Source of the DNA: a virus
Lineage: Duplodnaviria; Caudoviricetes
IMG/VR virus record: IMGVR_UViG_3300023179_000134
Coordinates: 1-55,015 of that record
Direction: 5' to 3' (one strand)
DNA: 55,015 nucleotides
Part shown: positions 17,217 to 52,681 of the stretch, piece after piece
How the letters are laid out: each line of letters opens with the position of its first letter
Position numbering within the stretch: position 1 is the first letter of the stretch
Program-made: the position numbers and the translations under genes
Notes under the pieces: model-generated
Told to the model about the DNA's origin: nothing
What the model saw: only the letters and a program-made list of their open reading frames with translations
The model's database searches: none

Positions 17217-17223
17217 GAGACTA

Positions 17224-17251: not shown

Positions 17252-17257
17252 TTAAGT

Positions 17258-19252: not shown

Positions 19253-19322
19253 TTAAATTATTTATTGTTTTGCATTGCTTAAAAACTGTTTTTAAAACAT
19301 AAAAACTTACATAAATATATAT

Positions 19323-28247: not shown

Positions 28248-30614
28248 ATGCCTACATTTTATCATGCAACTTCAGCTGATAGAGCTTCTGTGCTCTATGA
28301 CTACAAGACCATAGATACTTCTAAAGATATTGTATTTTCTTTTGATTATAATTGTTCAGGCGCTGGTCTTTCTGGTATAGATGGGTTTAGTTTATTTCTC
28401 ACCGAAAGTATTTCAGGACCCGTTGGCGGCGCTATTGGACCAGGTCTTGGCGTTACTTCTTTAAGCGCACTGTCAAATGTTAATTGTTTTACTAACCCTT
28501 TCCCGCCATTCGATATTATTTGTATAGGTACACCGGTATTATACGGCGGTGCAGAAAATAGTGTTCTTGCTATTGGATTTGATATAAGCGGAAGATTTGG
28601 GTCAGGAAACTATTACGGTCTTACTGGCCCTAGCGAAGAAGTGCCCAATACTATTTCTCTTAGAAGCGGTAAAGCCCAGAATTATGAATTTTTATACAAA
28701 ACCCCTCCGCTACACACATCTGCATTTGAAGAGCCTTTTTATCTTTATTCTACTCAAACAACAGGGTACAATACATTTAGAGCAAGACTAACTAACTTAG
28801 GTAAGACAATAATTTTGGATCACAAAATAGGTGAGGGTAAATATAATAATATATTTAAACAGAATATCCCCTACGATTTACCGCAATATATTTATGGCTG
28901 TATAGGGTTCAGTACAAACATTGATAAAGACACTATTAATTTAAGAGTTAAAAATTTTCATGAAAACGGGTTTTTTGTTACCCCTACAGTAACACCGTCG
29001 TTTACACCTACTGTTACCCCTACACCAACAGTAACACCTACCAAGACAGTAACACCTTCAGTAACGCCTTCAAATACAGTTACACCATCTATTACGCCTT
29101 CGAATACAGTTACACCATCTATTACGCCTTCGAATACGGTAACGCCTTCTATCACCCCTTCGAATACAGTTACACCATCTATTACGCCTTCGAATACGGT
29201 AACGCCTTCTATAACCCCTTCGAATACACCCACTAATTCTGAAACACCTACAAACACGCCTACACCTACGGAAACACCTACAAGAACACCTACAGCAACA
29301 GTTACAGTAACACCTACATTTACCCCAACTAATACTAGAACACCTACAGTGACACCTACATTTACTCCAACTAATACTAGAACACCTACAGTAACGCCAA
29401 CAAATACAAGAACACCCACTGTTACACCTACTGTTACACCATCTACAACTAAGATTAACTACAAGATGTATCCCTCCGATCAAACTAATATTATTATTAA
29501 TGATAATACAGTGGCAACGCCTTACCCGGTTGAATTTACTGTGTCAGGCATTACTAGAATAGTAGAAAAAGTAACTATTAAATTGCTTGATTATAATCAT
29601 CAATTTACAGGTGATGTAGCTATGTTACTAGTAGCTCCAAATGGCATATCAACTATTATTGCTGGAAGAGTTGGTGAAGATTCAGCTATTAATGTAAATG
29701 TAATGTTAGATCAAGACGCAAGTCAGCCCTGGAACGGATATACCTCAGGTACCTTTAAGCCTAATACAACCGCTGATGACTTCCCATTTGATAATATTAA
29801 TGGTTGCCCGGTAGGTCCTTATAATACTTCTCTAGATGCATTCTTCTATATGTCGCCTGGCGATGCTAACGGTACATGGAAGCTATATATTCAGGACTTT
29901 GCACCGGTAGATAGCGGTACAATGCAAAGTGCGCAATTATATCTATATCAAGTTTCACCATTTGCTTCACCAACACCTACAGCCACACCTACAAAGACAC
30001 CTACAGTAACACCGACTATTACACCTACGTTCCCATTACCTTCTAACAGCGCTACACCTACAGTAACACCTTCTCCTACAGTAACCCCTTCAATAACAGT
30101 TACACAATCCAATATAGATTATGTCTCTTACCCTTCATCTACAACTAATTTAATAATTATAGATGAAAGCATTGCATCGCCGTACCCCCTCGACTTTAAT
30201 GTATCAGGATTAGTCGGTACATATTCGAAGGTCACAGTTCAGCTTAGTGGATATTATCACGACTTTACAGAGGACGTAGTAATGCTTCTTGTTTCGCCAA
30301 CTAACACTACTTGCTTATTAGCAGGTAGAATAGGATTAAATTCTGCTATTGACACTTATGTAACTCTTGATCAGTATGCTGGTACGCCATGGGACGGGTA
30401 CAGCTCTGGATACTATAGGACCAACAGTACTTCAAATACATTTGCAATGAGTAGTAATAACGGCTGCCCTTCAGGCCCTTATAATACATCACTTTCAGTC
30501 TATAATAATATTAATGCAGCAAATGCTAACGGTACATGGAAGCTATATATTCAAGATTTTGCATTTAGTGACACCGGTAGTTTGTATAACGCTACATTAA
30601 GATTTCACAAATAA
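28248..30614 (+). CDS. Mucin-like appendage protein: lectin-like beta-sandwich, Thr/Pro stalk and two P-domain-like (proprotein convertase P) modules
   Basis: N-terminal DGFSLFL...GPGLG...LAIGFD (L-type lectin-like). TPTVTP tracts. Two copies of [15 protein letters not shown]. Confidence 0.65.
29067..29227 (+). repeat. 30-bp tandem repeat (about 5.3 copies) encoding [10 protein letters not shown]
   Basis: Unit ccttcgaatacagttacaccatctattacg, with synonymous variants. Confidence 0.9.
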
Positions 30615-30620
30615 AAAATA

Positions 30621-30648
30621 TTGATTTAACCGCATTGGTTATTAAAAT
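30621..30648 (+). promoter_or_regulatory. Sigma70-like promoter for the glycosyltransferase operon
   Basis: TTGATT-N16-TAAAAT, ending 6 nt before GTG 30655. Confidence 0.5.
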
Positions 30649-30654
30649 ATTAAA

Positions 30655-31923
30655 GTGAAAAACAGTAAAGACAAGATATTTATTTCTATTGCATCATATA
30701 GAGACCCCCAGCTAGTACCAACTCTTAGAGACTGCGTTGCCAATGCTAAATACCCGGAAAACTTAGCATTTACTATTTGCTGGCAAAAAGACGACAAAGA
30801 GTCTTTAGAAGAATTTGCAAATGACCCTAGAGTACAATATATAGAGATACCTTATAATGAGAGTAAAGGTACGTGCTGGGCTAGAAGCAAAATCCAGGAT
30901 AATTATAACAATGAAAAGTATTATCTTCAGCTAGATAGCCATCATCGTTTTGTAAAAGATTGGGATGAAAAATGTATAGGCATGGTAAAGCAGCTTCAAA
31001 AGAAAGGTCATAAAAAACCTCTCTTAACTGGTTATATTTCTAGTTTTAATCCTGACAACGACCCTGCAGAACGAATTCAAGTACCTTGGAAGATGAATTT
31101 TGATCGGTTTATACCGGAAGGCGCTGTTTTCTTTTTACCTGCATCAATTGACGACTATAAAGAAAGAATAGAGCCGCTACCAGCTCGATTTGTATCTGCG
31201 CATTTTATTTTTACTTTAGGTAAATGGGTAAAAGAAGTGCCCTACGACCCTAACTATTACTTTCATGGTGAAGAGATTAATTTAGCTGTTCGGTCTTATA
31301 CATGGGGATATGATTTATTTCACCCGCATATGGTGATAGCCTGGCATGAATATACTAGAAGAGGCAGAACAAAGCATTGGGACGATGTAAAAGATTGGGG
31401 CGAACTGAATAGGCTGTCACATCTTCGCAATAGAAAGTTATTTGAAATGGATGGTGAAGTTAATGATATTAAATGGGGTAAGTATGGTTTTGGCAAGGCC
31501 AGATCTTTACAAGATTATGAGAAATATTCTGGGCTTTGTTTCAAGAAGCGTGCTGTACAGAGGTGGACACTTGAAAATAAGTTAGCACCGAACCCAAACA
31601 ACGATCTTACACCTGAAGAATATGATAAATCTTTCTTAAAAATCTTTAAGCATTGTATTGATGTGGGATATGATCGTGTGCCTGAGAAAGATTATGACTT
31701 CTGGTGCGTTGCTTTTAAAGATAAAGAAGGTAAAGACGTATATAGAAAAGATGCTGATCGCGCAGAAATTGATAGAATGTTTAACGACCCAGACAAGTAT
31801 TGCAAAATATGGAGAGAGTTTAATGCTGAAGAACTACCTCATAGCTGGATAGTATGGCCCCATAGTGTATCAAAAGGATGGGCTGATCCTATCACTGGTG
31901 TAATTGGTAATAGAGTAAGTTAA
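30655..31923 (+). CDS. GT60/PF11397-like polypeptide N-acetylglucosaminyltransferase
   Basis: IFISIASYRD, YYLQLDSHHRF..DWD, VPYDP..YFHGEE...AVRSYTWGYDLFHP and WHEY, matching the Skp1/mucin GlcNAc-transferase family pattern. Confidence 0.8.
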   Translation: MKNSKDKIFISIASYRDPQLVPTLRDCVANAKYPENLAFTICWQKDDKESLEEFANDPRVQYIEIPYNESKGTCWARSKIQDNYNNEKYYLQLDSHHRFVKDWDEKCIGMVKQLQKKGHKKPLLTGYISSFNPDNDPAERIQVPWKMNFDRFIPEGAVFFLPASIDDYKERIEPLPARFVSAHFIFTLGKWVKEVPYDPNYYFHGEEINLAVRSYTWGYDLFHPHMVIAWHEYTRRGRTKHWDDVKDWGELNRLSHLRNRKLFEMDGEVNDIKWGKYGFGKARSLQDYEKYSGLCFKKRAVQRWTLENKLAPNPNNDLTPEEYDKSFLKIFKHCIDVGYDRVPEKDYDFWCVAFKDKEGKDVYRKDADRAEIDRMFNDPDKYCKIWREFNAEELPHSWIVWPHSVSKGWADPITGVIGNRVS

Positions 31924-32706
31924 ATGAATAAGTTTTGCTTTGCAACAGAAGCTACTTATCCTAACTATACTCGTAGAATTAAAGAGAATATTTTAGGTGA
32001 TTATATTAGATTTGAATTAGATAAGAGAGAAATCCCATATATAATCTCAACTAATAGACCACAAGACTTTGATGAATTTAAAGGTCACCCTTTTATAAAA
32101 GTTTTTAGTATTGATGAATTGCGTAATGATGTAAAAGAGTCGTTTGAATATGAGCTCTACCCAGAAGACCCAAAAGGGTTATATCCTAGCAAATACCCAT
32201 GGAATGCAAGAAGATTTACTTTAAGAAAGGCAGCAGAACTTGGATGTAATTCTTGTTATTATTTTGAAGCTGATATGAAAGTTAATCATTGGTTAAATCT
32301 TTCTAATGAGGAGTTTTTTAAGATATTAAATGAAATTTATTCACCCAACACTTTAACAACTAATACAACAATCTTTAGATATAAAAACAAAAGACCTGAT
32401 GATGTTTTTAATTATCATGACAAATATATTGAAACGTTCGGATATAATTTTCAACCCGATCAATACGATACAGTAGACGGTACTCTTCAGTTTTATATGG
32501 GAGAATCGGTTGATGCTCTTATGAATTTTTATAAAAATTGGAATGAATTAGCTTTATTTGGATATAGAAATTCAGTTAATGGAGACTTTGGTTATAAAAA
32601 CAATGCACACGCTGTACTTTCTTTTGCTATACCTGCTTCAAATTTTACTTTAAGAGAACATGGGTTACCGTTTTTTCCTGAACATCATTTTGAAGAAAGA
32701 TACTAA
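31924..32706 (+). CDS. Putative glycosyltransferase-like protein
   Basis: Within the GT operon. YPWNARRFTLRKA...YYFEAD resembles a GT-A DxD region. Confidence 0.45.
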   Translation: MNKFCFATEATYPNYTRRIKENILGDYIRFELDKREIPYIISTNRPQDFDEFKGHPFIKVFSIDELRNDVKESFEYELYPEDPKGLYPSKYPWNARRFTLRKAAELGCNSCYYFEADMKVNHWLNLSNEEFFKILNEIYSPNTLTTNTTIFRYKNKRPDDVFNYHDKYIETFGYNFQPDQYDTVDGTLQFYMGESVDALMNFYKNWNELALFGYRNSVNGDFGYKNNAHAVLSFAIPASNFTLREHGLPFFPEHHFEERY

Positions 32707-33362
32707 TGAATTTATTAATTAAATTCCCGACTAGGGGCCGTCCAGAAAAGTTTAAAAGCACCTTTAATAGGTACTATTCATTATTATCTAAGAAAAGGGA
32801 TGTGAAATTTGTATTTACTTTTGATGAGGATGATACAACCATGAATAATGATGATATAAGGTCGTTTTTAAGCCCATACTCTAATATATGCGAACTTAAT
32901 TATGGGCAGTGTAAGAATAAAATAGAAGCTATTAATGCTAATTTAGACGATAAGCAGTTTGATGTACTTTTACTTGCAAGTGATGATTTAGTTCCATATG
33001 CGCAGTCTTATGATGATAATATATTGTCGCATATGGAAGAGGCTTTTCCTGATACTGATGGTAGTTTACAGTATTACACACCCATGTGGGCAGATACTTT
33101 AGATATAATGTGTATTCTCGGATTTAAATATTATAAAAGATTTAATTATATTTATCACCCATCCTATAAAGGGCTGTTTTGTGATAACGAATTTACTGAT
33201 GTTAAAAAATTTTTAGGTAAAAATAAATTTGTTTGCGAGCAATTGTTTGATCATAATTATATACAAGGCGATCCTACAGCTTGTAGGAGTAATAATAGTG
33301 ATTTTCAACGCGATGACTGGTGTAATTACGAAGAACGTAAAAAAATTAACTACGGGTTGTAA
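32706..33362 (+). CDS. GT-A (GT2-like) glycosyltransferase
   Basis: LLIKFPTRGRP, KIEAIN, DVLLLASDD and YKGLFCDNEF. Confidence 0.75.
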   Translation: MNLLIKFPTRGRPEKFKSTFNRYYSLLSKKRDVKFVFTFDEDDTTMNNDDIRSFLSPYSNICELNYGQCKNKIEAINANLDDKQFDVLLLASDDLVPYAQSYDDNILSHMEEAFPDTDGSLQYYTPMWADTLDIMCILGFKYYKRFNYIYHPSYKGLFCDNEFTDVKKFLGKNKFVCEQLFDHNYIQGDPTACRSNNSDFQRDDWCNYEERKKINYGL

Positions 33363-33363
33363 T

Positions 33364-34884
33364 ATGTTTTCTATTTTAGGTACAATATTTGCAAATAAAG
33401 GATATTATATAAATCTAGACTCTTCCTTAGACCGCAAAGAACATATAGAGAATCAAATATTAAAGTATGATATAAAAAATCTTAAAAGGTTTTCTGCTTT
33501 AACAGATGAGCTTAGACAGTGCACTGCTACTAAAAGCCAAAAAGCTGTTTTTGAACAAGCATTAAAAGAAGACTATGAAGTTATTTTTGTATCAGAAGAT
33601 GATTTTGATATTTTAGATACTGTCATTACTTTAAATGGTCAAGAAGTGCCTATTAAGGAGCATTTAGCTTCTTTAAAAGCTGAATTAGACACTATAGAAT
33701 GGGACGTTTTTATGTTTGGATGCACACCTAAAACATTTCTTATTCCTTATACATCTAATATTAGCTTAATAAACAAAAGTACCGGTGCATGGGCCTATCT
33801 TATTAAAAAGAGAGCTATGCAGTACATACTAGACAACTTCAATTATAAAAGAGATTATCAGGCAATAGATGATATTTTGCCAATTTTAAATTTTAGAGGG
33901 TTTAAAACATATTGCGCCACGCCTATTACCATCCATCATGCAAAAGGGTTTGAGTCAACCTTAAACCCTCAAGGTCCCGTTAATTACGACAATATGATAG
34001 AAGGTAGCTATTACAAATACTTAAAAGATTTTATAAAGCCAAATTATTTAGATCAGTATGAAGTAGAGAGAAAACTCACCATAGTAGTAACCGGGCATTT
34101 TGTAGATAACTTTTTATACTATTTAAGATACCTTTTGCATAGCTTACCAGAAGAGATTAAAAAGTGTAGGTTTTTAATTTATTACGATCATAATCCTAAT
34201 ATAGAGAATCCTATACTACCTCTAATACATTATTTTTATAATAGAAATAATACTATTACTTACGATATTAAATTTGTAAAATACGGTCTTATTGATGCAG
34301 TAAAGACTTGTTTAGAAGATATTACTACTCCATATTTTATGTTCTTAGAACACGATTGGGTATTTCTTAAGAAAGATAATATAAACTTTAAATCTATTAT
34401 TAACGCTTTTGACAAATATAATTTTATTCATTCAGTTTACTTAAACAAGGATAATAACGTAATGAGAGGATTTGAAATATGTCAAGATGTTACTGGTCAA
34501 ACAACCCCGTATGAATTAGAAGAAAGAGTTAAAGAAATTAATCTTATTACTACATGTAGGTGGTCTAATAATCCTGCCATACATAGAACTAGCAAATATA
34601 AAGAGTGGTATAACACATATCTTGCTTCTGTTCATAATAACGTTGGACATGGTCAACACGATGTTGAGGAAGTCATGATACCTACCTACAGAGACATTAT
34701 TTCTAAGTCAAAATGGATTGATATTAGAGATAGTTGGGGTACTTATTTATATGGTAATATCGGCGATGGTCCTTATGTTGGCCACACAGATGCTTCGCGA
34801 AGATATCTTACATCATCAAGGTCTCAACCAGAAATCGATGGCGACGAATATATAAAGAATAATCCCTTACCACAACATGATTAA
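33364..34884 (+). CDS. Two-domain glycosyltransferase (GT25-like plus GT-A)
   Basis: YYINLDSSLDRKE, SEDD and GAWAYLI (GT25-like); second domain FLEHDW...WSNNP. Start moved to ATG 33364, just after the upstream stop. Confidence 0.75.
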   Translation: MFSILGTIFANKGYYINLDSSLDRKEHIENQILKYDIKNLKRFSALTDELRQCTATKSQKAVFEQALKEDYEVIFVSEDDFDILDTVITLNGQEVPIKEHLASLKAELDTIEWDVFMFGCTPKTFLIPYTSNISLINKSTGAWAYLIKKRAMQYILDNFNYKRDYQAIDDILPILNFRGFKTYCATPITIHHAKGFESTLNPQGPVNYDNMIEGSYYKYLKDFIKPNYLDQYEVERKLTIVVTGHFVDNFLYYLRYLLHSLPEEIKKCRFLIYYDHNPNIENPILPLIHYFYNRNNTITYDIKFVKYGLIDAVKTCLEDITTPYFMFLEHDWVFLKKDNINFKSIINAFDKYNFIHSVYLNKDNNVMRGFEICQDVTGQTTPYELEERVKEINLITTCRWSNNPAIHRTSKYKEWYNTYLASVHNNVGHGQHDVEEVMIPTYRDIISKSKWIDIRDSWGTYLYGNIGDGPYVGHTDASRRYLTSSRSQPEIDGDEYIKNNPLPQHD

Positions 34885-37189
34885 TATACAAAAAATTCTC
34901 AATTTTGAAAATAAAAAATTAGATCCTTCGATTGTAAATAGTGATCAAATAAAATACATTGTTACATATCTTTCTGAGGTCATAGATAATAATCTCGAGG
35001 GCGATATTGTTGAGTTAGGTTGCTATTTAGGAGAGACAAGCAAATATATTTCTAAAACTCTTGAAGTTGCTAAATCTAATAAAAAATATTATGTTTATGA
35101 TTCGTTTGAAGGATTGCCTGATTTATCTAAATTTGAAGAAGGTACAGGTTGGAAGCCCCGAACTCTTAATACAACGGAAGAAGTATTGAGAGCTAATTTT
35201 GAATTGAATAATGTCAACCTACCTATTATAACAAAATCGTGGTTTAAGGATATTAAAGAAGAACAGCTTCCAGATAAAATATCGTTTGCATTTTTAGATG
35301 GTGATTTCTATACTTCTATTTTTGAAAGTTTAGAAAAAATATATAATAGAGTAGTAGACGGTGGATATATATTAGTACACGACTATAAAAGAAATGACCT
35401 TCCGGGTGTTGAAGCTGCTATTTTAGAATATTTTAGACTTAACAATCTTAAATTAAATATAATAGAAGTTTGTGAACAATTAGCTGTAATATGCAAGAAC
35501 AGAGAAATTAAAAAAATAGAACCTCAAAAATCTAAATTTACCATAGTTACAGGCCTGTGGGATATTGGTAGGGACAAGCTTAAAGATGGTTGGTCACGCG
35601 GCTATTCGCACTATTTAACTAAGCTCGAAGAGCTTTTAAAAGCTGATTTTAATTTAATTATATTTGGTGATGAAGAATTAGAGAAATTTGTATTTGAGCG
35701 CCGTGATCAATACAACACACAATTTATTAAGCGCGGTATTGATTGGATCAAGAATATGCCATTTTATAGTAAAATACAAGAGATTAGAACTAATCCCGAT
35801 TGGTATAACCAAGCCGGCTGGCTATCAGAATCAACACAAGCAAAGCTAGAGATGTACAACCCTCTTGTTATGAGTAAGGTGTTTCTTTTAAATGATGCTA
35901 AAATATTAGATAAGTTTGATTCTGAGTTTTTATTTTGGCTAGATGCAGGTATTACAAATACTGTACACCCTGGATATTTTACGCATGATAAAGTATTAGA
36001 AAAACTACCAAAATTTTTAGATAAATTTTTATTTGTTAGCTTCCCTTACCCTGATGGTGGTGAAATTCATGGCTTTACAAGAACAAAAATGAATGAAGTG
36101 GCGCAAACAGAGAACGTAGAGTATGTTTGCCGCGCAGGCTTTTTTGGTGGGCCAAAAGAATTTATTTCTGAAATTAATACTATTTACTATAGTTTATTAA
36201 ATAGCACTTTATCAGAAGGGTATATGGGTACAGAAGAAAGTATTTTTACTTTAATGACCTATCTTCATCCCCATCTTTTTACAAGAGTATCGATAGATGG
36301 AAACGGACTCTTGGGTAAATTCTTTGAAGATTTAAAAAATTTAGATCTTACTGAACATGAGGCTCAGCTAGCTAGCAGGGTATTATCAGGAGTGAGCTTA
36401 TATGTTATAACCTTCAATTCGCCAAAGCAGTTTGAGGTTTTATGCGAATCATATCTTAAGCACCCAGGTTTTATAACAGAAACAAAAAATTATCTTCTCG
36501 ATAACAGTACAAATGAAAAGACTTTTGAAGAATATAGCAAGTTATGTAAAAAGTATAAATTTGAACATATTAAAAAAGATAATTTAGGTATTTGTGGTGG
36601 TAGGCAGTTTATAGCCGAACATTTTAATGAAAGCGATTCGAAGTATTGTATTTTTCTAGAAGATGATATGACACTCTGTACAGAAAACACACCTGTTTGT
36701 AGAAATGGGTTTCCTCGCTATACAAATAATCTTTTCTATAAAATAGTTAAAATTATGGATAAAGAAAAGTTTGATTTTCTTAAGTTTTCTTTTTCTGAAT
36801 TTTTTGGAGATAATTCTATTCAATGGGCATGGTATAACGTTCCTCAGGTTGTAAGAGAAAAGTTTTGGCCAAATAATAAAAAACTACCTAAGATGGGCCT
36901 AGACCCTAATGCACCGAAGACACAATTTAAAAATATAGGTATATTAGACAGTCTAAGCTATATTACTGGAGACATTTATTACTGTAATTGGCCTCAAATT
37001 GTATCTAAAGAGGGTAATAAGAAGATGTTTATTGATACTAAATGGGCGTCCCCCTTTGAACAGACGTGGATGTCGTATATGTATCAACTTACTAAGGAAA
37101 ATAAACTTAACGGTGCACTTTTATTACTATCTCCTATTGAACATAATCGCTTTGACCATTACGCTAATACATTAAGAAGAGAAAACTGA
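34877..37189 (+). CDS. Three-domain protein: TylF/MycF-like O-methyltransferase, HtrL/YibB-like domain and GT-A glycosyltransferase
   Basis: EGDIVELG, YDSFEGLP, FLDGDFY and GGYILVHDY (TylF); TIVTGLWDIGR...FWLDAG...GFFGG (HtrL-like); NLGICGGRQ...IFLEDD (GT-A). Confidence 0.8.
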   Translation: MINIQKILNFENKKLDPSIVNSDQIKYIVTYLSEVIDNNLEGDIVELGCYLGETSKYISKTLEVAKSNKKYYVYDSFEGLPDLSKFEEGTGWKPRTLNTTEEVLRANFELNNVNLPIITKSWFKDIKEEQLPDKISFAFLDGDFYTSIFESLEKIYNRVVDGGYILVHDYKRNDLPGVEAAILEYFRLNNLKLNIIEVCEQLAVICKNREIKKIEPQKSKFTIVTGLWDIGRDKLKDGWSRGYSHYLTKLEELLKADFNLIIFGDEELEKFVFERRDQYNTQFIKRGIDWIKNMPFYSKIQEIRTNPDWYNQAGWLSESTQAKLEMYNPLVMSKVFLLNDAKILDKFDSEFLFWLDAGITNTVHPGYFTHDKVLEKLPKFLDKFLFVSFPYPDGGEIHGFTRTKMNEVAQTENVEYVCRAGFFGGPKEFISEINTIYYSLLNSTLSEGYMGTEESIFTLMTYLHPHLFTRVSIDGNGLLGKFFEDLKNLDLTEHEAQLASRVLSGVSLYVITFNSPKQFEVLCESYLKHPGFITETKNYLLDNSTNEKTFEEYSKLCKKYKFEHIKKDNLGICGGRQFIAEHFNESDSKYCIFLEDDMTLCTENTPVCRNGFPRYTNNLFYKIVKIMDKEKFDFLKFSFSEFFGDNSIQWAWYNVPQVVREKFWPNNKKLPKMGLDPNAPKTQFKNIGILDSLSYITGDIYYCNWPQIVSKEGNKKMFIDTKWASPFEQTWMSYMYQLTKENKLNGALLLLSPIEHNRFDHYANTLRREN

Positions 37190-37230
37190 TTTACCACGTT
37201 TAAATACGTGTGATTTAAGTAAATAATAAT

Positions 37231-38028
37231 GTGAATTATGTTAATTATGTATTGTCGAGTGTTCAAATCCCTGGGTACCCTTCAGTATTAAATCATTACA
37301 TTTTTTTTGATCCCGTTCTAGGTACAATTGACTACCCGGCAAGTGCAAATGGTAGTTATTTCTCAGAAACAACAGGTACTTTTGTATACCCTGCCACAGC
37401 TAACGGTGGATTATTTTTCCCATGGGGGTATTCCGTTGAAAATACTACACTTAGCGCTGACTTAGGTGTTTTTAAAGGACAAGTTACTCTATTAATTAGC
37501 CCTTCATCTATAGACAATACTTACTTTACCACTTTAAAGATAATTTATGATTTTAACGACAATGACGTTATTAATATTGAAAAGGGTATTGTAGAAAATA
37601 TTTTACCCGGTAACGTCGCATTTCTAGATGCTGGCAACCCAAATGATAAGAATATTTCTCACGTTTATACTTCTAAATCGTTAAGCGGTACAACTTATTA
37701 CCCCACAGTAACTGTTCTTAACGGGAACATGGCGTTAAATGTTTTTAATTTAAAAATTACATTACTTCCCGGTACAGTATTTGATTTTGAAGATTTTCAT
37801 CTTATTAATACATCACAATTATCGAGATTTGATACACCTGATTTCAAGTCTTTAGAAGTTTTTGAGTTAGATGAATCCGATGTTAACTATGTATCTAATT
37901 TTTTACTTATTAGTTCCTATCCCACACCTACACCTACAATCACCCCCTACCCGACACCCACACCATCTGTTACACCTACAGCAACAGTTACCCCCACTTT
38001 AACAAGAACCCCTACCCCATCACCTTAA
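37231..38028 (+). CDS. Virion protein with a C-terminal Thr/Pro tail
   Basis: TAAATA-N5-GTG; ends in about 35 aa of PTPT repeats. Confidence 0.6.
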   Translation: MNYVNYVLSSVQIPGYPSVLNHYIFFDPVLGTIDYPASANGSYFSETTGTFVYPATANGGLFFPWGYSVENTTLSADLGVFKGQVTLLISPSSIDNTYFTTLKIIYDFNDNDVINIEKGIVENILPGNVAFLDAGNPNDKNISHVYTSKSLSGTTYYPTVTVLNGNMALNVFNLKITLLPGTVFDFEDFHLINTSQLSRFDTPDFKSLEVFELDESDVNYVSNFLLISSYPTPTPTITPYPTPTPSVTPTATVTPTLTRTPTPSP

Positions 38029-38040
38029 TAAATATTTACT

Positions 38041-41000
38041 ATGGATGTAATAACATTAAATGACACGAATTTTATAGGTTTATCTGCACGCTATAAAGAT
38101 GATGATGCTTTACAGTTTAATCAATCTATAATTTTTTCTGAGCAGAGCATATATCTTTCTTTAAATGATATTTTAAAAGAAATATACGACAATAAGATTA
38201 ACAATTATTCAAATCTTTTTTTAACTAGAAAAGAAGTTCTTTCTTCAGGATTTAACATAGAAAAGCTTGAGCCTTTAGAAGACGAAGGATTCTCAACATA
38301 TATTGCTGCTAATGCAGCTGGAACAATAGTTCCTACCACAAAGTTCTGGACTGTTGAAGAACCGGCAGTAAATGTAAATGTTGCTCAAGTTAAAGTCGAT
38401 GGTGAGTTTAGTAAAGTTAATAATTCTTATTTTTTTGATATTGAATTGCTTACTGAAAAATTATGTAAAATAACACACGAAAACAATAATGTAGTTAGAT
38501 ATCTTACTGTTGATTATACAGGCAATTTATCTTTTGCAAAAGATGCGGGGTTAGATATTATAGGGCCTTTGAGCCCTCAAATTTTCTATTACGTTTACGA
38601 TAGATCATACAACTACATAGTTCTTATAAAAAATATAAACGATATACCTAAATTCGTTACTTTTAGTGCAAATAATGAGGACCTGGCTTTAACAGATCCC
38701 ATAACAGGTACTAGTATTCCTTACTCTATTTCTTCTGTGTTTAGAGTGCGAGAACGAAATCCATTACCTAATAGAACTGAGCTTATTGACCCGTGGGTTA
38801 GCTACACAAAGAACTTTAAGACGAATTCTCAAGATATTAATATAGATAGAAGCTATGATAATATTAACAGTAATTACTTGCTTAATAATGAATATTATTC
38901 AATATCTGGAAACTATATAGATTTTAATGTATTATCACTTAAAAACGCTTTTACACCTGAATATAACATATCACGCGCAAACCCATTTTTTGACGAACTT
39001 AATGTAGAGTTTAGAGATTATCAGAAACTACATACAGGCTCTTATCAAAATTTAGGTTCAGACAATATTACCGCTGGATATGAAGCATACACAAATTCAA
39101 TTATATTAAAAAAAGATAAGGTAACGTACTTTCATATACCGCAAGTTTTTTACCCGTTTTTAAGGCTAAATATTAACGATTCAGGGCTTACAGATGCGGG
39201 CGCTATAGCAGGCGATCACCCGCTTAAATCAGATAAAATTTTTAAGAAAAAAGCAGATTATAAATATACTTCTAATTTTGGTGATACTGCAGAAGAAAAT
39301 TCAGGTGAATTTTTATGTGCGTGGCTTTCAGGTAATACAAATCCAAGCGTAAGACCTATATGGGTTGACAGATACTATAATCCAAAAAAGGTTTCAGGTT
39401 ATCAAGCGCTTACAGCTTCTGACTTTAAAGCTATAAAATATATTTCTAATTTTGATTGTTTAGTCGATAAAGCTTTCGAAACATTCGCTAAAGAAGTAGA
39501 CGTTTTTGATAAGCCTTCAGATTTAATTTTTGAAAAAGGAACATATTATGCCTACCATCACTACGGTCCTAGCGATGTCGACAAGTTTATAGAAACTCTT
39601 TCCACAGATTTAGTAGAAAAGGGTATTAATTCGTATAAGTTTTATAACGGCTCAGACGCTACATATTCAGCTATTATAAATGATAGTAATGAAATTTCTG
39701 AGTATATTTTTGACGGCACAATTTACGGCTCTACTTCAAGATTATCAGCAGTTCAAGATTCTAATCAATTTACACTAGTATTTGATGGCTACAGCTCTGA
39801 TTGGAATAAACCACTAGGAAACCAATTAGTTGGAAACTATGATCGTGATGGATTTGGTATATTTAATGAAAATTTAATAACACCTACTTTATTCATTCCG
39901 TTCTTAAGCGGTATGTACGTTACTAATTTAAATTATAATGTACTTAACACATTAAAGTTCGATAGTAATATTACTGGTATAATACGACTACAGGGTATGA
40001 ATGATTTTTATGGAATTTTCGAGGACAATAGCTTTAGAAGATTTAATTTAAATTATTCTGAAACTAGAAGAGCATATCCTTCTGATATAACTGATGAATT
40101 AGGAAAAGTTAGAGGTGTTGATTATAATGAAACAGATGCAAGGGCTTTAATAGGCGATGATCCAGGTATTAAAAAAATAATGAAACTAGATTTACTATCT
40201 CATGAAATTACTGATATTACTACAGGTACCTTTAATTTAACAAGATACCCTAGAAGAATATCTAGAGGGCTTAATATTAACTCAACAAACTCTATTGTTT
40301 TATATAATGGTGTGATGTATTTAACGCAGGGCAATAAAGCGGTGCGCGCTAAAGATACAATATTTTATAATTATCTAGACAAACAAATTTTACAATGGAA
40401 AGACATTACAAATTTAACAAGTACAAATCCAATTACAGCGTTTATTTCGCCTACTACTATAAATGATTTTTCCGTTGACTATAATAGTGATTTGTGGATA
40501 GTATTTGATAACAATAAATTTGCAAAATATAGTTATGACAGAGTATTTATTTTATCAGGGCAGTTCGTAGAAGACGACGATAAAAACTATACAAATTATA
40601 AAATCGATTTTACAGCAGATTTTAATTTAGGCATTTACAATCAGTATGCTGTAATAACTAGACAATCGTATGAAGGGGATAAAAAGAATCTTCAATTTAT
40701 AAAAATATCTTTAAGTGGTATTACAGTAAGCAGAGATTATTTTTCGGAATATTCGCCTCAAGGTAATAATTATATATGCAAAACCGTACTTTCTAAAGAG
40801 GTTTTTACAACCTCAACAACATTATCAAGTAAATATTCTAACGGTATTATAATAAATCAAATAATACCATTACAAGACTACACTTCAATAGTTGCATTTA
40901 GTGCAAACACATCAAATTATTTTTATCAATATAAAAATAATGCTTCTAATTTCTCTAATTCAAAATTCCTAACAACATATGTTAAAGACAAATATCCCGC

Positions 41001-41628
41001 AAATAGTATTAATGTAAAAGCTCAACTAACTAATATTTTTAATCAAAATGACACAGTATCAACAGAAATTATTTTTAATTTATCTGCTCTTGATCCAGGA
41101 TATCATAATTTTGCTGTTAGATTTGATGCAGATGGCGGATATATGCATTTGTTTATTGATGGGCAGCAGCAAGGTGTTACAGAATTTTCACCTAGAAAAT
41201 ATAAATTTAGTAATTTAATATATAGGCCTTTTCTTATAGGTAGTTCGAGCTATGCTTATTCTCTTCCTTTATTTTCTTATTTAAAAAATTCTTCGTTTTT
41301 AACATATGATTTTAGAGTTAAAAACTTCTACATATACGACACGCCGTTATTTGATTTTGATATAATGTTCCACGCGAGAAAAGGAATGAATATACAAGAT
41401 ATTGTCTTTGATGTCGCATGCGGCAGACGCAATTATTCAGAAGAAATAGAAAGATATTTTAAATTAGCTGTGCCTGGGTCTAAATCTACACAATATAATT
41501 TAGTTATTAAAAATTCAGGAATTAGAGATTCAGATCTTCAGTATGCTTTAGAGCAGAGAATTTATGAAATTATAAATAGCACAGCTCCTGTCTATTCAAA
41601 GTTAAATACTATAAAGTGGGTTAATTAA
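38041..41628 (+). CDS. Large virion protein with a LamG/concanavalin-like C-terminal region
   Basis: GYHNFAVRFD...MHLFIDG...FLIG...KNFYIYD; TAAATA upstream. Confidence 0.55.
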   Translation: MDVITLNDTNFIGLSARYKDDDALQFNQSIIFSEQSIYLSLNDILKEIYDNKINNYSNLFLTRKEVLSSGFNIEKLEPLEDEGFSTYIAANAAGTIVPTTKFWTVEEPAVNVNVAQVKVDGEFSKVNNSYFFDIELLTEKLCKITHENNNVVRYLTVDYTGNLSFAKDAGLDIIGPLSPQIFYYVYDRSYNYIVLIKNINDIPKFVTFSANNEDLALTDPITGTSIPYSISSVFRVRERNPLPNRTELIDPWVSYTKNFKTNSQDINIDRSYDNINSNYLLNNEYYSISGNYIDFNVLSLKNAFTPEYNISRANPFFDELNVEFRDYQKLHTGSYQNLGSDNITAGYEAYTNSIILKKDKVTYFHIPQVFYPFLRLNINDSGLTDAGAIAGDHPLKSDKIFKKKADYKYTSNFGDTAEENSGEFLCAWLSGNTNPSVRPIWVDRYYNPKKVSGYQALTASDFKAIKYISNFDCLVDKAFETFAKEVDVFDKPSDLIFEKGTYYAYHHYGPSDVDKFIETLSTDLVEKGINSYKFYNGSDATYSAIINDSNEISEYIFDGTIYGSTSRLSAVQDSNQFTLVFDGYSSDWNKPLGNQLVGNYDRDGFGIFNENLITPTLFIPFLSGMYVTNLNYNVLNTLKFDSNITGIIRLQGMNDFYGIFEDNSFRRFNLNYSETRRAYPSDITDELGKVRGVDYNETDARALIGDDPGIKKIMKLDLLSHEITDITTGTFNLTRYPRRISRGLNINSTNSIVLYNGVMYLTQGNKAVRAKDTIFYNYLDKQILQWKDITNLTSTNPITAFISPTTINDFSVDYNSDLWIVFDNNKFAKYSYDRVFILSGQFVEDDDKNYTNYKIDFTADFNLGIYNQYAVITRQSYEGDKKNLQFIKISLSGITVSRDYFSEYSPQGNNYICKTVLSKEVFTTSTTLSSKYSNGIIINQIIPLQDYTSIVAFSANTSNYFYQYKNNASNFSNSKFLTTYVKDKYPANSINVKAQLTNIFNQNDTVSTEIIFNLSALDPGYHNFAVRFDADGGYMHLFIDGQQQGVTEFSPRKYKFSNLIYRPFLIGSSSYAYSLPLFSYLKNSSFLTYDFRVKNFYIYDTPLFDFDIMFHARKGMNIQDIVFDVACGRRNYSEEIERYFKLAVPGSKSTQYNLVIKNSGIRDSDLQYALEQRIYEIINSTAPVYSKLNTIKWVN

Positions 41629-43245
41629 ATGAATATCTCATTAGAAATACAAAATGAAGGTTTAATTTACGATAGATATTTAGGTGAAGAGCTATCTTTA
41701 CCATACAATTTAGATGATATTAAAGTTCAAGCAAATGATACTGTATCATCTAGTTTAGTTAACTTAAAATTTAAGCATTTGTATGATAATTTCTTATATC
41801 TCTATAAAAATACTCTTCTCGCTTCTAATGTAATTCCCGTTTCATCTACAGCTATAGCTGGTATTACCGCGTCGTCTACTAATTTTACTTGGTATAGGGG
41901 GTTAAGTTCTAGAGAATTTAGAGCTTTAGCAAACAACACATCTTTACAAGGTGTTGATAATACAAAAGCAATGACATTAGTAAAAAATAGAGATTTTGAT
42001 AGATATTCATTATTCACTTCATCTGGAACTGCTATTAATATTTTTAACTTTGATTATAGCGCAACCTATATAGAAAAAGTCTTGACTATAACTCAACTTG
42101 ATCAAGGATACGGAGTACCTTTTAAAAGTGTGTGTGATTTTGAAATAAGCGGTAATAATCTTTTTGTTTTAGACTGCGATCTTAATAGGCTTATTAAATA
42201 CGATGCAAGCGGGTTTTTAGAACTTAACACGGTTTCTAACAATAGATTATTTTACATTGATTCAATTGGTAATTATGGAGATCAAAATGCTAAAACAGAT
42301 TTTTATGACCCTCAAGGAATTACCATTTTTGATAATTTTATTTTTGTATTAGACTCGGGTAACAAATGTATTAAAAAATATGATATTAATTTAAATTGGA
42401 AATTTACATACAGGCTTTATAAGGACTTTTTATCTGCATTTCCCGTAGACATTGCCAATGACAGCACTGGCAATTTGTTTGTTTTAACAGATAATAATAA
42501 GTTATTTATTTATAATAATGAAATTAGTTCTAAAAAAATTATTGATTTAGAACCGCTTAGAGAAGGTGACGAGCAATTTAAAAAACTAGTTTTTTCTAAA
42601 AGCGATTCGAATATATTTTATCTTTATTCAGATAAAAATGTTTATAAGAAACTAGTAAATAAGCCATACAGTACAGTTGGAAAATATTTGCTGTATTTAT
42701 TTAAATATGATGACCCTAATGAAATTATTAAATCATTCGCTTCAGCACCTACATTAGACAATAAAAGCGACACTAATATTTTATTTTCTGTCTCCGGTAA
42801 TATAGGTAAGTTTGGATATTTTTATGATAATTTAAATTTATTTGATATTTTAGCTGTTCGCGATTTTGATATATATAGCTTTGAAGAGAATAACTTTAGC
42901 AGTAATGAATATATTCAAAATTGGGTTTTTAATAAAAATATATCAAAAATTTTACTTGGCATGATGAGATTGAGAGATGAAATTATTGGAAAGTTTATTG
43001 CATCTAAAGACTACAAAGGCAACGTCACTTTTACTGGTACAAGGTACTTATTACCAACAGAATTAAATTCTGTTTATTTTGAACAGGATATGACTTTTTA
43101 TGTTGGTAATAATGAGCTTTTAACAAGTAGTATTATTAATAGACCTCTTATAAAGCTGTATAATATTCAAGAATCTCTTTTAAAAATTCTTGATGCTGAA
43201 ATTTTAAGAGTTCCTAACGACAACATCCCAATTTATTTAAATTAA
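41629..43245 (+). CDS. Virion protein with an NHL-like beta-propeller
   Basis: [22 protein letters not shown]...[14 protein letters not shown] and [15 protein letters not shown]. Confidence 0.6.
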
Positions 43246-43246
43246 T

Positions 43247-46200
43247 ATGGCAAAATATATTTTTAGACTTAACACAGGTAAAGGGCAGCCATATGTTCCG
43301 CCAGTACTGCCTTCTCCAACCCCTACTGAGACTGTAACACCAACAGTAACACCTACTATTACTGGAACATCTAATGTTGCGCAGTCACCCACACCTACAA
43401 CTACTGCAACACCAACAAAGACACCGACACCTTCAACTACTTCTACGAATACGCCAACCCCTAGCGTTACCATTACAGCTACACCAACATTAAGCATAAC
43501 CCCTTCAGCCTCTGTAACACCGACAACAACTACCACGTCGACAAATACCCCAACACCTACTACTTCACCTACAACAACAGAAATCAGTACACAAACACCA
43601 ACAATCACCCCTACTAATACTTTAACGCCTAGTTCTACTGTAACATCTACTGCAACATTAACGCCTACACCTTCAGTTACTGAAACAGTAACACCTACTA
43701 CTACACCCACCGAAACACCGACTTCTACAGTAACACCTACTACTACACCTACTGAAACACCGACTTCTACAGTAACACCTACTACTACACCTACTGAAAC
43801 ACCTACTCCGACAGAAACACCTACACCTACAGAGACTATAACACCGACAACTACAACAACAGTTACAATTACCCCCACAAGCACTAATAATCCCACGCCT
43901 ACCCCTACAGAAACACCTACAAATACACCTTCATCTACTGAAACATCTACACCTACTCCTACAGTAACGCCGACGATCACCCCTACTACTTCTGAAACAT
44001 CTACACCTACTCCTACAATAACACCATCTGAGACAGCTACAGTAACACCGTCAGTCACAGAAACACCTACTTTAACTGTTACACCTTCTATTACAGAAAC
44101 GTTAACCCCTACTAATACCCCCACATGTACTTTAACAGTAACACCCACAGAAACTGTAACACCGACGCCGACATCCACAGAGACGCCTACTCCTACCGTA
44201 ACACCAACAGCTACAGTTACCGTAACGCCTACAAGAACATCAGCTGAAACGCCTACTCCTACTGAAACAGTAACTTCTACACCGACTACAACATCAACCG
44301 TAACACCAACCGTGACACCAACAGTTACTGAGACTGCTACTCCAACTACTACAGAAACGCCTACACCTACCGTAACCACGTCTATTACAGAAACACCTAC
44401 TTCGACAGAAACCCCGACTCTCACTCCTACGGTTACACCTACAGTTACTAAAACTTTAACGCCAACCGCTACTTCTACAGAAACCCCCACAAACACACCT
44501 ACCTCTACACCGACAATAACACCTTCAAATACAATCGATTTAACTGCTACACCAACAACAACTTCTACACCGACCAAAACAGCTACGCCAACGCAGACAA
44601 CGACTGTAACACCTACTACTACCGTAACACCTACTACTACAGAAACGCCCACGGAAACACCTACCGTAACACCTACTATTACACAGACATCAACAGTGAC
44701 CCCTACTCCTACAGTTACCGTAACGCCTACAAGAACATCAGCTGAAACGCCTACTCCTACTGAAACAGTTACATCTACTCCTACTGTAACCCCCACTAAT
44801 ACTTCTACGGTAACACCTACTCCTACTGTAACTGAAACAGCAACACCAACCGTAACGCCTACAAGGACATCAGCTGAAACGCCTACTCCTACTGAAACAG
44901 TAACTTCTACTCCTACTGTAACGCCTACACCTACTGAAACTGTAACTTCGACACCAACCATAACACCTTCTGCAACGCCTTCTGTAACACCTACAAGAAC
45001 ATCAGTAGAGACACCTACACCTACTGAAACTGTAACTTCGACACCAACCATAACACCTTCTGCAACGCCTTCTGTAACGCCGACGAAAACATCAGCAGAG
45101 ACACCTACGCCTACCGTAACTGTAACTTCGACACCGACTACAACATCAACTACAACACCAACCGTAACACCAACCGTAACGCCTTCTAGAACATCAGCAG
45201 AGACACCTACACCGACACAGACAGTTACATCTACTCCGACGTTAACGCCTACTGTAACACCTACTGTAACGCCTTCTAGAACATCAGCAGAGACACCTAC
45301 ACCGACACAGACAGTTACATCTACTCCGACTACAACATCAACTACAACACCAACCGTAACGCCTACAAGAACATCAGCAGAGACACCTACACCGACACAG
45401 ACAGTTACATCTACTCCGACGTTAACGCCTACTGTAACACCTACTGTAACGTTAACACCTACTATAACACCTTCAATAACCTCTACTTCTAGACCTCTAA
45501 GCCTATGTGTTTCTGGTGCAGGCTTTACTGCCGTAAATGATAATTACAGCTTTAATTCATTAACTAATAGATGGGAATCTAGTTCAGGGACGTACAGATT
45601 ATATAGAATCGGAGGAAGCCAGTGGGTTATTCAATTACTTAGCGGTACCGCTATCTATTATCAAAATAGTAATACTAGCAGCATACCCCCGTCAACCGGT
45701 TGGACGGTAGGTACAAGCGGAACTGCTCCTGCACCCACAGTAGCACAAGAAATTTGTGCATCACCTACACCAACGCAGTCACCAACAGTTACATCTACGC
45801 CTACTATAACACCTACAGTTACACCTAGCGGTACTGCAGCATCGACACCTACACCAACACAGTCACCTACTATTACGCCTAGTGTAACCATAACATCTAC
45901 ATCTACGCCAACGCAAACACCCACACTGTTTGCATTAGCTGCTTTTGACGAAATTCAAAATTATATAACTGCTACGCCTAGCCCTACAGTTACATCTTCT
46001 CCTACAGTGACACCTAGCACTACAATTACCGCTTCGCCTTCACCAACAGTAACACCCTCCGTTACACCTTCTGTTACTGTAACACCTTCTGTTACTAATA
46101 CACCATCTATAACACCAACATTTACACCGACAAGAACTCTTACACCTACAATAACACCTTCTCAAACAAGAACACCAACACCAACAGATACACCGATAAA

Positions 46201-46531
46201 CGGATCGTATTGGACAACTAGTATTGTAACCGGTACCGGGGCAGGCAATATTTTATCGTTATGCACCGGTGAAGCCGGTATTAACCTTGTAATGACTACG
46301 GGAGCTCAGTTCCAAACTAACTGCGTAAGCGATGGCTCAGGTGATTTTGATTCAACATTAATACGCGTAAATGGTGTTGATTACGCAAATATAAGCTGGA
46401 ATAACAGATCTACAACAAACAGCTTATTTAGGTTTAGAATAAACTCTTCAAGCCCTTGGTATTATTGTTATTACAAGAGAGGACCAGGATTCCCAAATAT
46501 AGTTAATTTCCCTCAAGATAATCTTACTTAA
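43247..46531 (+). CDS. Mucin-like protein with a very long Thr/Pro/Ser stalk and small Cys-containing globular domains
   Basis: About 725 consecutive aa of TPT/TETP/PTVT repeats. Translationally coupled to the upstream gene. Confidence 0.8.
43310..45490 (+). repeat. Low-complexity coding repeat (acacctac-rich) with internal higher-order duplications
   Basis: 36-bp units near 43686-43800. Recurrent [13 protein letters not shown](E/Q)TVTSTPT blocks from about 44220 to 45450. Confidence 0.9.
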
Positions 46532-51614: not shown

Positions 51615-52133
51615 ATGAGCGAATTTATTAAACAACAACAAATATTTTCAGATGTTAATTTAAAAAACCTTACTTCAGATATTTATGTAGATGGCACAGA
51701 CAAATACATTGTAATCAACATTAATGGTATACAGAGCCTAGTAAAATATATACCACCGACGCCTACCCCCACAGTAACACCTACAAAAACACCTACTCCC
51801 ACGCCAACACCGACAATAACGCCCTCCATAACACCATCGTTTACACCTTCGCCAACACCTACTATGCCATTTCAGTTTTTAGTAAGCTCTACTAACCCTG
51901 TGTATGTAACATCATCTGTAGTACCTCCTGGTGTTTATACAAAAACATACAGCGGGACGATGTATTTTTATTCAGGTTATCTAGTAACATATTACGTTAT
52001 GCATAATGGAACTAATTGGGTTATAGCGGACGATAGCTATGTTCCAAATATTTACGACACTAACCCTTCAGCAACAAATCCAAATTATGTGCCTAGAACT
52101 GGTTGGACAAACGGTACTATAATTACAGCATAA
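51615..52133 (+). CDS. Small virion protein with a Thr/Pro linker
   Basis: [16 protein letters not shown] linker between two short domains. Confidence 0.6.
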   Translation: MSEFIKQQQIFSDVNLKNLTSDIYVDGTDKYIVININGIQSLVKYIPPTPTPTVTPTKTPTPTPTPTITPSITPSFTPSPTPTMPFQFLVSSTNPVYVTSSVVPPGVYTKTYSGTMYFYSGYLVTYYVMHNGTNWVIADDSYVPNIYDTNPSATNPNYVPRTGWTNGTIITA

Positions 52134-52551: not shown

Positions 52552-52625
52552 TAGCGGGGGTTGGATTTGAACCAACGATCTCCTGGTTATGAGCCAGACG
52601 AGTTACCAGACTTCTCTACCCCGCG
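52552..52625 (-). tRNA. tRNA-Met(CAT), initiator (fMet) type
   Basis: CGCGGGGTAGAGAAGTCTGGTAACTCGTCTGGCTCATAACCAGGAGATCGTTGGTTCAAATCCAACCCCCGCTA. C1:U72 mismatch, A11-U24, CAT anticodon, no encoded CCA. Confidence 0.93.
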
Positions 52626-52630
52626 ATAAA

Positions 52631-52667
52631 TATTTAATAGTATATATACTAGCACTATATTATTCAA
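52631..52667 (-). promoter_or_regulatory. Tandem promoters for tRNA-tmRNA: sigma70-like plus late TAAATA
   Basis: TTGAAT-N17-TATACT (52667-52639), and TAAATA (52636-52631) 5 nt before tRNA base 1. Confidence 0.6.
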
Positions 52668-52681
52668 GCTTAAATAATTTT

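Follow-up and report, generated by a model that had tools for sequence, protein, structure and literature searches.

A five-gene operon among phage appendage genes

We analysed a 55,015-base stretch of viral DNA (Duplodnaviria; Caudoviricetes), referred to below as the window, which is the whole of the IMG/VR viral record IMGVR_UViG_3300023179_000134 (estimated completeness 25%). Its subject here is a five-gene operon of glycosyltransferase and sugar-tailoring genes, a candidate protein O-glycosylation cassette, that lies between the baseplate and fibre genes. Genes are named by their first base (Table 1). The five genes (30655-37189) all lie on the + strand, with intergenic gaps of 0, -1, 1 and -8 bases, and are coupled, as a previous reading of the sequence alone (the sequence-only reading) had claimed. 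They form part of a single co-directional array running from 25103 to 50335, in which gaps range from -8 to 41 bases. The operon indeed interrupts a set of appendage genes, as homologues of the flanking genes 28248 and 37231 are directly adjacent in two syntenic relatives. The start of the fourth gene is most likely the ATG at 33364, not the TTG at 33229 chosen by the open reading frame (ORF) program.

The first gene of the operon, 30655, encodes a GT60-family glycosyltransferase. It scores 233.2 bits against the PF11397 profile (cut-off 21), matching profile positions 94-350 and 2-44 of 352, and its GT-A catalytic domain (about aa 1-330) carries a DxH motif at D94-S95-H96. Residues D94-S95-H96-H97, E207 and H231 are invariant across 67 aligned homologues, which come from both viral and bacterial loci and are as little as 37% identical. 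The AlphaFold2 model built from this alignment adopts a GT-A fold with a pLDDT of 93.9, and replaces an unusable earlier model made from 19 close homologues (pLDDT 54). The catalytic domain is closest to the sister family GT27: residues 2-330 of the model align with residues 132-448 of GalNAc-T2, and from the offset of these ranges, D94/H96 and H231 presumably fall at the GalNAc-T2 metal ligands. The catalytic domain is followed by a conserved β-rich C-terminal domain of about 90 residues (aa 329-416), into which the fold search hardly extends and which matches no Pfam family. Profile, motif and fold thus all support the GT60-like assignment made in the sequence-only reading. In the accessible text of one study, GT27 and GT60 are described as sister families that both use DxH instead of DxD, with GT60 confined to prokaryotes and protists (PMC7185993); in that of another, GT60 enzymes are polypeptide α-GlcNAc-transferases, which in Dictyostelium and T. 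cruzi initiate glycans of the mucin type (PMC8724618). We propose, from sequence and predicted fold, that 30655 is an initiating polypeptide HexNAc-transferase.

At the 3′ end of the operon, 34877 encodes a fusion protein. Its TylF-type sugar O-methyltransferase domain (aa 21-198, nt 34937-35470; PF05711, E 1.5e-23), which had been predicted, is followed by an HtrL/YibB-type domain (aa 220-470, nt 35534-36286; PF09612, E 7e-13, 49 bits against a cut-off of 24.1) and by a C-terminal domain (aa about 480-770) with weak GT-A-like matches only. Of the three interior genes, 33364 exceeds the GT25 cut-off of 24 (PF01755) with 26.6 bits on aa 1-230 alone, against 19 bits on the whole protein, and also matches phrog_2835 (E 5.5e-5). 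Its C-terminal half has zero matches in Pfam, PHROGs and NCBIfam, as does the whole of 31924, and 32706 matches no Pfam family above cut-off. The operon had been credited with about six glycosyltransferase-like domains: three pass their curated cut-offs, one of them for a half-protein only, while two are weak and two are unassigned. The HtrL-like domain was recovered, the GT25-like one stands above cut-off only for the N-terminal half of 33364, and a match to the GT2-like domain was not found. Neither a signal peptide nor a membrane segment is present in the operon proteins or in the Thr/Pro-rich proteins described below (maximum 19-residue hydropathy 1.53), and the operon proteins are soluble.

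Thr/Pro tracts, defined as 20-residue windows with at least 70% Thr, Pro and Ser, were found by script in 4 of 36 ORFs, and these are exactly the four genes named in the sequence-only reading (28248, 37231, 43247 and 51615). The mucin-type trait of long Pro/Thr/Ser-rich tandem-repeat domains is present in 43247, and the other three genes add further tracts. Degenerate tandem repeats, 12 to 192 bases in length (12-90 nt in 28248), make up the tracts, whose Pro share is 10-16%. A codon pattern for P-T-x-T-P-T-x-T-P, with one mismatch allowed, gave 60 matches in the window and 0 in 100 shuffles; all 60 are on the + strand and inside the four Thr/Pro genes, most of them in 43247. In 28248, a folded N-terminal part, a tract (aa 242-403, nt 28971-29456), a folded domain and a second tract (aa 569-622, nt 29952-30113) precede a C-terminal proprotein-convertase P-domain (PF01483, E 1.9e-12; best stretch aa 671-786). 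The proposed main acceptor, 43247, consists of 38.7% Thr, 16.2% Pro and 10.1% Ser, with tracts at aa 17-752, 836-896 and 905-985, two small folded islands and a C-terminal domain. Its GC skew of -0.52 and its GC content of 0.43-0.45, compared with about 0.31 nearby, are consequences of the Thr/Pro repeat tracts. Three antisense ORFs on the - strand, at 43237-45051 (604 aa), 28958-29419 (153 aa) and 29070-29483 (137 aa), were rejected as genes because they lie opposite ACN/CCN repeats, where stop codons are rare.

The window has the layout of a T4-like myovirus according to PHROG matches, which also identified tail tubes and a tape-measure-like protein. ORFs at 1-28 kb were searched against PHROGs only, while the Pfam scan covered 16 window ORFs. 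Besides its best family, 46568 matches ten further PHROG families, five of which are tail-fibre, short-tail-fibre or baseplate families; 46568 is thus a tail fibre, which places the Thr/Pro genes in an appendage module. Cultured relatives are distant, the best sheath match being cyanophage P-TIM40 at 34% identity. The T4 late-promoter motif TATAAATA occurs 10 times in the window against 17.9 expected, and since this falls below expectation no argument on timing is drawn from late promoters. Within the baseplate gene block lie a dUTPase and a clamp-loader subunit (17258-18666), an arrangement kept in the relatives G070 and G071 discussed below. At 52589-53664, two neighbouring genes have the look of auxiliary metabolic genes. 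One resembles S-adenosylmethionine decarboxylase genes (PF02675, E 8e-12), and the other, at 53005-53664, encodes a 2OG-Fe dioxygenase (PF10014, E 2.6e-18) whose sole NCBIfam match is an isoleucine-derivative dioxygenase (E 1.3e-4).

Table 1. Operon genes, candidate acceptors and landmark genes of the window.
Feature	Position	Strand	Evidence and remarks
Large terminase	521		PHROG match
Tail sheath	3758		PHROG match
gp6-like baseplate wedge	19807		PHROG match; upstream of the Thr/Pro genes
Appendage-type protein, 788 aa, proposed acceptor	28248..30614	+	Two Thr/Pro tracts and P-domain
GT60-family glycosyltransferase, 422 aa	30655..31923	+	PF11397, E 8e-69
Unknown-family protein, 260 aa, variable interior	31924..32706	+	Homologue in 10/82 loci
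Weakly glycosyltransferase-like protein, 218 aa, variable interior	32706..33362	+	phrog_14945 'glycosyltransferase', E 4.7e-8
Two-part protein, 506 aa, variable interior	33364..34884	+	GT25-like N-terminal half, nt 33364-34053
Fusion protein, 770 aa, conserved 3′ anchor of the cassette	34877..37189	+	TylF, HtrL/YibB and C-terminal domain
265-aa protein, proposed acceptor	37231..38028	+	C-terminal Thr/Pro tail, aa 225-265 (nt 37903-38025)
Mucin-like protein, 1094 aa, proposed main acceptor	43247..46531	+	878/1094 aa in tracts
Tail-fibre protein (context)	46568..50335	+	phrog_5342 'tail fiber protein', E 2.4e-82
172-aa protein, smallest candidate acceptor	51615..52133	+	Tract, aa 43-88 (nt 51741-51878)

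The cassette and Thr/Pro tracts in other genomes

GT60 homologues occur in 455 of 2.9 million viral contigs and in more than 7,181 metagenome protein clusters. Of the records of cultured phages, 4 out of 50,697 have one, namely XacN1 and Xoo-sp13 of Xanthomonas and RAS14 and CM1 of Stenotrophomonas. The HtrL-type partner is also present in all four cultured phages, and the whole operon as a DNA query against cultured phages returned a single 350-base match. We sampled 82 loci, those of XacN1 and RAS14 and 80 viral ones; in 69 of them a 34877 homologue is no more than 10 kb away from GT60. The interior genes 31924, 32706 and 33364 have homologues in only 10, 5 and 17 of these loci respectively. 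In syntenic relatives the interior is replaced by carbamoyltransferases (as in XacN1), FkbM and CmcI-type methyltransferases, GT10, PLOD-type glycosyltransferase, GT25, GT2 and sulfotransferase genes, and remoter records (87 of 133 ORFs scanned) also carry GT11, GT15, GT7C and RXYLT1-like domains and a GDP-sugar epimerase/dehydratase. The conserved ends and swapped interior indicate that a conserved first enzyme and its partner bracket a fast-changing set of sugar-tailoring genes. The cassette lies among fibre genes in the window and about 20 relatives; a 28248 homologue is found upstream of GT60 in 16 of the 82 loci and a 37231 homologue downstream of the cassette in 18.

Some relatives carry further genes around the GT60 cluster. 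The G010 locus has tandem GT60 paralogues at 9998-12180 (PF11397, E 2.9e-74 and 3.9e-52), followed by GT25, FkbM, GT11 and GDP-sugar epimerase/dehydratase genes. G001 (324 kb, estimated 97% complete) encodes, 4 kb upstream of its GT60 cluster, a 1123-aa TonB-dependent-receptor-like outer-membrane β-barrel with carboxypeptidase-regulatory domains (2895-6263). In G006 (197 kb, estimated complete), a subtilase, a trypsin-like protease and a 'Volactin' actin-like protein (14569-16250 and 20274-21209) adjoin the GT60 cluster and Thr/Pro genes.

Cultured phage XacN1 provides a link to virion proteins. The accessible text of its genome paper reports at least two virion glycoproteins and suggests that they are made by two glycosyltransferases, ORF328 and ORF334 (PMC5852040). 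Of these two, ORF334 is the GT60 protein homologous to 30655 (46% identity). The XacN1 tract genes are ORF232-237, ORF369/370 beside the sheath genes, the giant ORF384, and ORF325 beside the cluster.

GT60 and Thr/Pro tracts also go together at the level of whole records. The P-T-x-T-P-T-x-T-P pattern is present in 17 of 18 GT60-positive IMG/VR records searched in full, with 6-158 matches in 15, 1-2 in two and zero in one, compared with 0-3 for a reversed-pattern control. All seven GT60-positive records at least 90% complete have the pattern, and the only three records seen to have GT60 but no tracts (G007, G014 and G015) are incomplete. Among cultured GT60 phages, XacN1 has 116 matches and RAS14 has 52. 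Ten cultured GT60-negative T4-like phages of 141-244 kb (cyanophages, a pelagiphage and Pectobacterium PM2; two have HtrL-like genes) show 0 matches in eight cases and 1 in two. Contigs chosen purely for a longer Thr/Pro pattern carry PF11397 above cut-off in 13 of 49 cases, and in 9 of the 14 that are at least 100 kb, for comparison with the base rates given above. These 49 come from 62 distinct tract contigs; the others are 11 under 15 kb, one known GT60-positive record and one more. Within 10 kb of GT60, a Thr/Pro ORF is found at 40 of the 82 loci.

The association extends to bacteria, where GT60 relatives are encoded in 157 genome stretches. Of 79 bacterial loci, 52 have a Thr/Pro ORF with 30 or more tract residues no further than 10 kb from GT60; ORFs were read from stop to stop, so that some frames in high-GC DNA may be spurious. 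In the 43 bacterial loci with full flanks, tract residues per 2.5-kb bin fall from 2381 through 1140 and 388 to 368 with distance from GT60, a control that holds local composition constant. Some bacterial GT60 neighbours resemble phage-derived or injection-machine parts, such as crAss muzzle-like proteins and the VgrG spikes of Burkholderiales, and in Sphingomonas 1200-aa proteins with an Rv2525c glycoside-hydrolase-like domain are encoded directly upstream of GT60. On Achromobacter and Ralstonia contigs, VgrG spikes (Phage_GPD, gp5 C-terminal domain) with Thr/Pro tracts are encoded 1-5 kb downstream of GT60, and type VI secretion spikes may also be targets. Overall, the association recurs in low-GC T4-like phages, in 50% GC Xanthomonas/Stenotrophomonas jumbo phages, and in Sphingomonas, Saprospiraceae and Actinomycetota loci. 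The co-occurrence anticipated by the sequence-only reading therefore holds across distant phages and bacterial or prophage loci, with the qualification that tracts also occur without GT60.

Proposed pathway and competing explanations

Taking the gene content and its distribution together, we consider it probable that the operon is a phage-borne, soluble cytoplasmic O-glycosylation cassette acting on the phage's own Thr/Pro appendage proteins in late infection. The GT60 enzyme 30655 would take host UDP-HexNAc, most likely UDP-GlcNAc, at a Mn2+-binding DxH site and attach an initial sugar to Thr (or Ser) within the tracts of 28248, 37231, 43247 and 51615. The HtrL-type module of 34877, together with the variable 31924, 32706 and GT25-like 33364, would then extend this sugar into a short glycan, and the TylF-type domain would O-methylate a sugar. 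The baseplate or fibre apparatus would thereby gain mucin-like stalks that are stiff, resist proteases and are specific to the strain. In this scheme we infer the donor, acceptor residue, step order, virion location and benefit. The sequence-only reading had likewise held that the phage glycosylates its own Thr/Pro stalks; the GT60 identity, the solubility of the proteins, the co-occurrence and the XacN1 report favor it, while relatives that keep the tracts without the operon speak against it.

Those relatives and several other observations weigh against the proposed pathway. G070 and G071, whose terminases are 75-78% identical to that of the window and which are syntenic with it from tail tube to fibres, have no operon between their 28248 and 37231 homologues in the parts sequenced (26% and 36% complete, respectively). 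In G071, the ORF of the 28248 homologue ends at 50179 and the 37231 homologue starts at 50195. Neither PF11397 nor HtrL was found in the sequenced parts of either relative, and no glycosyltransferase was found downstream of their baseplate block among the 27 of 40 ORFs scanned. The Thr/Pro pattern nevertheless matches 105 times in G071 and 38 times in G070. A copy of the operon may lie in the unsequenced two thirds of these genomes, far from the tracts, as in other records. Relatives carrying one component without the other, which the sequence-only reading took as counting against it, were thus found in part: these two have Thr/Pro genes without the operon, within 26-36% of the genome. Seven further records at least 90% complete have the Thr/Pro pattern and neither GT60 nor HtrL, which shows that the tracts do not need this enzyme. 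Among 16 terminase relatives searched, GT60 was found in 1 and tracts in 7; these are mostly short contigs, all of them incomplete (13-74%), and as none reaches 90% the sample gives no clean two-by-two table. A Thr/Pro ORF within 10 kb of GT60 is lacking at 42 of the 82 loci. Tracts without the enzyme are found even in near-complete records, whereas the enzyme without tracts is confined to incomplete ones. An enzyme-substrate relation predicts this asymmetry, but the same is expected if tracts are simply common in some phage groups, and the co-occurrence counts are not phylogenetically independent. Furthermore, the four Thr/Pro proteins are proposed to be virion proteins from gene order only, no solved GT60 chain appears among the best 50 fold matches listed for 30655, and PDB sequence searches with the protein and two profiles gave nothing below E 0.2.

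The G070 fibre region has features of its own. Among its Thr/Pro fibre genes, at 1923-4916 and 11600-19494, are genes for two proteins with the Mtd_N (major tropism determinant N-terminal) domain, of which one additionally has an endosialidase-chaperone domain, and for two proteins with RCC1 repeats. This may point to a diversity-generating system acting on fibres.

The absence of the operon from tract-bearing genomes is also what would be seen if the enzymes glycosylated proteins other than the tracts, or outside the virion (for example capsid or host proteins), with the tract link reflecting shared ancestry or habitat. The half of the loci that lack a tract within 10 kb fit this explanation, as do the glycosylated proteins of mycobacteriophages, which are capsid and tail-tube subunits in the accessible text of PMC12363180. 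We regard it as unlikely, because the association recurs in very different phage and bacterial backgrounds and decays with distance within loci, which habitat alone does not predict. A somewhat smaller chance is given to a cassette that makes or alters a host surface glycan (lipopolysaccharide (LPS), capsule or other), for instance as a block to superinfection, with the tracts serving as plain linkers. HtrL/YibB and GT25 take their names from genes of LPS clusters, the cassette with its variable interior is reminiscent of O-antigen loci, and polymorphic glycosyltransferase clusters of cyanophages are read as surface remodelling in the accessible text of a jumbo-phage comparison (PMC7824862). 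However, all operon products are soluble, and Pfam, PHROGs and NCBIfam searches found no flippase, ABC exporter, polymerase or lipid-carrier priming phosphoglycosyltransferase among the five genes. Moreover, the characterised members of the initiator family act on polypeptides in the literature accessible to us, and surface remodelling leaves both the GT60-Thr/Pro association and the reported XacN1 virion glycoproteins unexplained.

Glycosylation of a modified base in phage DNA, evading restriction, is highly improbable. It is suggested by the C-terminus of 34877, which faintly matches the DNA-glycosylating families phrog_842 (β-glucosyl-HMC-α-glucosyltransferase; E 8.3e-6, aa 546-641) and TAGT (E 0.063), an observation that also counts against protein glycosylation, and by the XacN1 cluster, which comes after DNA polymerase and RNase H genes. 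XacN1 DNA was digested with BssHII, NaeI and SpeI and sequenced with PacBio reads, and the accessible text of that report leaves DNA modification unmentioned (PMC5852040), which argues against bulky DNA modification by the cluster. The placement of the cassette among fibre genes and the peptide acceptors described for GT60 and GT27 enzymes in the accessible literature also speak against a DNA target. No Tet/JBP (PF12851) match was found in 11 GT60-positive genomes, although the positive control was also silent. Within the proposed protein-glycosylation pathway, a very small chance is left for a variant in which GT60 modifies hydroxyproline, as Gnt1 does on Skp1, and not Thr. The Pro content of the tracts and the 2OG-Fe dioxygenase gene at 53005-53664 are in its favor, but that oxygenase belongs to PF10014, which is not a prolyl-4-hydroxylase family, and no prolyl-4-hydroxylase family was found among the 16 Pfam-scanned ORFs, with ORFs of 1-28 kb scanned by PHROGs only.

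Significance and relation to known systems

The individual parts of the proposed system are known: GT60/GT27 initiators, mucin-like acceptors and phage virion glycosylation. In the literature searched, we found nothing on a GT60 initiator of a phage combined with an HtrL partner, with a hypervariable tailoring cassette and with Thr/Pro stalks. The mucin-initiating enzyme family of protists occurs here in 455 viral contigs and more than 7,000 metagenome protein clusters, tied to mucin-like tracts in appendage proteins. More tentatively, this could be a widespread phage 'glycocalyx' system, in which GT60 and its HtrL-type partner bracket hypervariable tailoring genes that write strain-specific mucin-type O-glycans on the Thr/Pro stalks of tail, fibre and lysin proteins; this wider idea is possible, though we would not presume it. 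Under this wider idea, particle glycan diversity, besides receptor-binding protein sequence, would be under diversifying selection in nature. The occurrence of GT60 next to VgrG spikes with Thr/Pro tracts and next to prophage tail proteins in bacteria also hints that the GT60/GT27 lineage of eukaryotic mucins has a reservoir in prokaryotes or viruses. Phage-particle glycosylation is regarded as rare, and shown for a few mycobacteriophages, in the accessible literature. If the proposed pathway is right, many large environmental phages carry a self-made sugar coat that differs between close relatives. Such a coat would matter for host range and adhesion, for the stability of the particle and for its recognition by grazers or immune systems, and would also bear on the origin of mucin-type O-glycosylation. 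Because four cultured phages carry the same gene pair (GT60 and HtrL), the proposed pathway is directly testable.

The closest enzymatic parallels are the protist GT60 initiators, with which 30655 shares the PF11397 family, the DxH motif and, encoded next door in the phage, acceptor-like Thr/Pro repeats. Unlike these, the window enzyme is phage-encoded and soluble, has no membrane anchor or secretory signal, carries the extra β-rich C-terminal domain, and is partnered with HtrL-type and methyl- or carbamoyl-tailoring enzymes. Compared with the GT27 GalNAc-transferases of animals and Toxoplasma, 30655 is 12-15% identical, has no identified ricin-type lectin domain, and is cytoplasmic and not in the Golgi. 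Mucin-type systems generally operate in the secretory pathway, whereas the enzymes and acceptors of the window lack signal peptides and membrane segments, so that glycosylation by a phage inside a bacterium would be cytoplasmic.

Among viruses, a likeness to giant viruses (chloroviruses, and Pandoravirus and Megaviridae with GT60-like proteins) is seen in virus-encoded, host-independent glycosylation, and a BFVD search found GlcNAc-transferase-like models in Megaviridae (E 2.9e-24) and Pandoravirus (E 3.6e-18). These viruses differ in having eukaryotic hosts, and in chloroviruses the glycans are N-linked at sequons of an atypical kind. Mycobacteriophages Che8, Corndog and Myrna bear phage-made glycans on capsid and tail-tube proteins, according to the accessible text of PMC12363180. 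They resemble the system proposed here in using phage glycosyltransferases for their own particle proteins and in having the glycosyltransferase genes among or beside virion structural genes. Their enzymes are not among the relatives of 30655, as only four phage records matched and none is mycobacterial, and GT60, long mucin-like tracts and a variable cassette are not reported for them in that accessible text. Bacterial O-antigen loci share with the cassette the arrangement of conserved genes bracketing a hypervariable sugar-tailoring set.

The nearest cultured counterpart is the XacN1 ORF330-ORF334 cluster, also present in Xoo-sp13, RAS14 and CM1. These phages are Rak2-like jumbo phages of 50% GC that have no TylF domain fused to the HtrL protein, and their cluster is flanked by replication genes and, on the other side, by a giant baseplate-side ORF. 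Their GT60 proteins are 43-46% identical to 30655, and the HtrL-type homologues of XacN1 and RAS14 are 40-41% identical over aa 188/219-770 of 34877. In XacN1, a carbamoyltransferase lies between GT60 and HtrL, as in the window relatives L007-L013, and many Thr/Pro tracts occur genome-wide in a phage for which virion glycoproteins have been reported.

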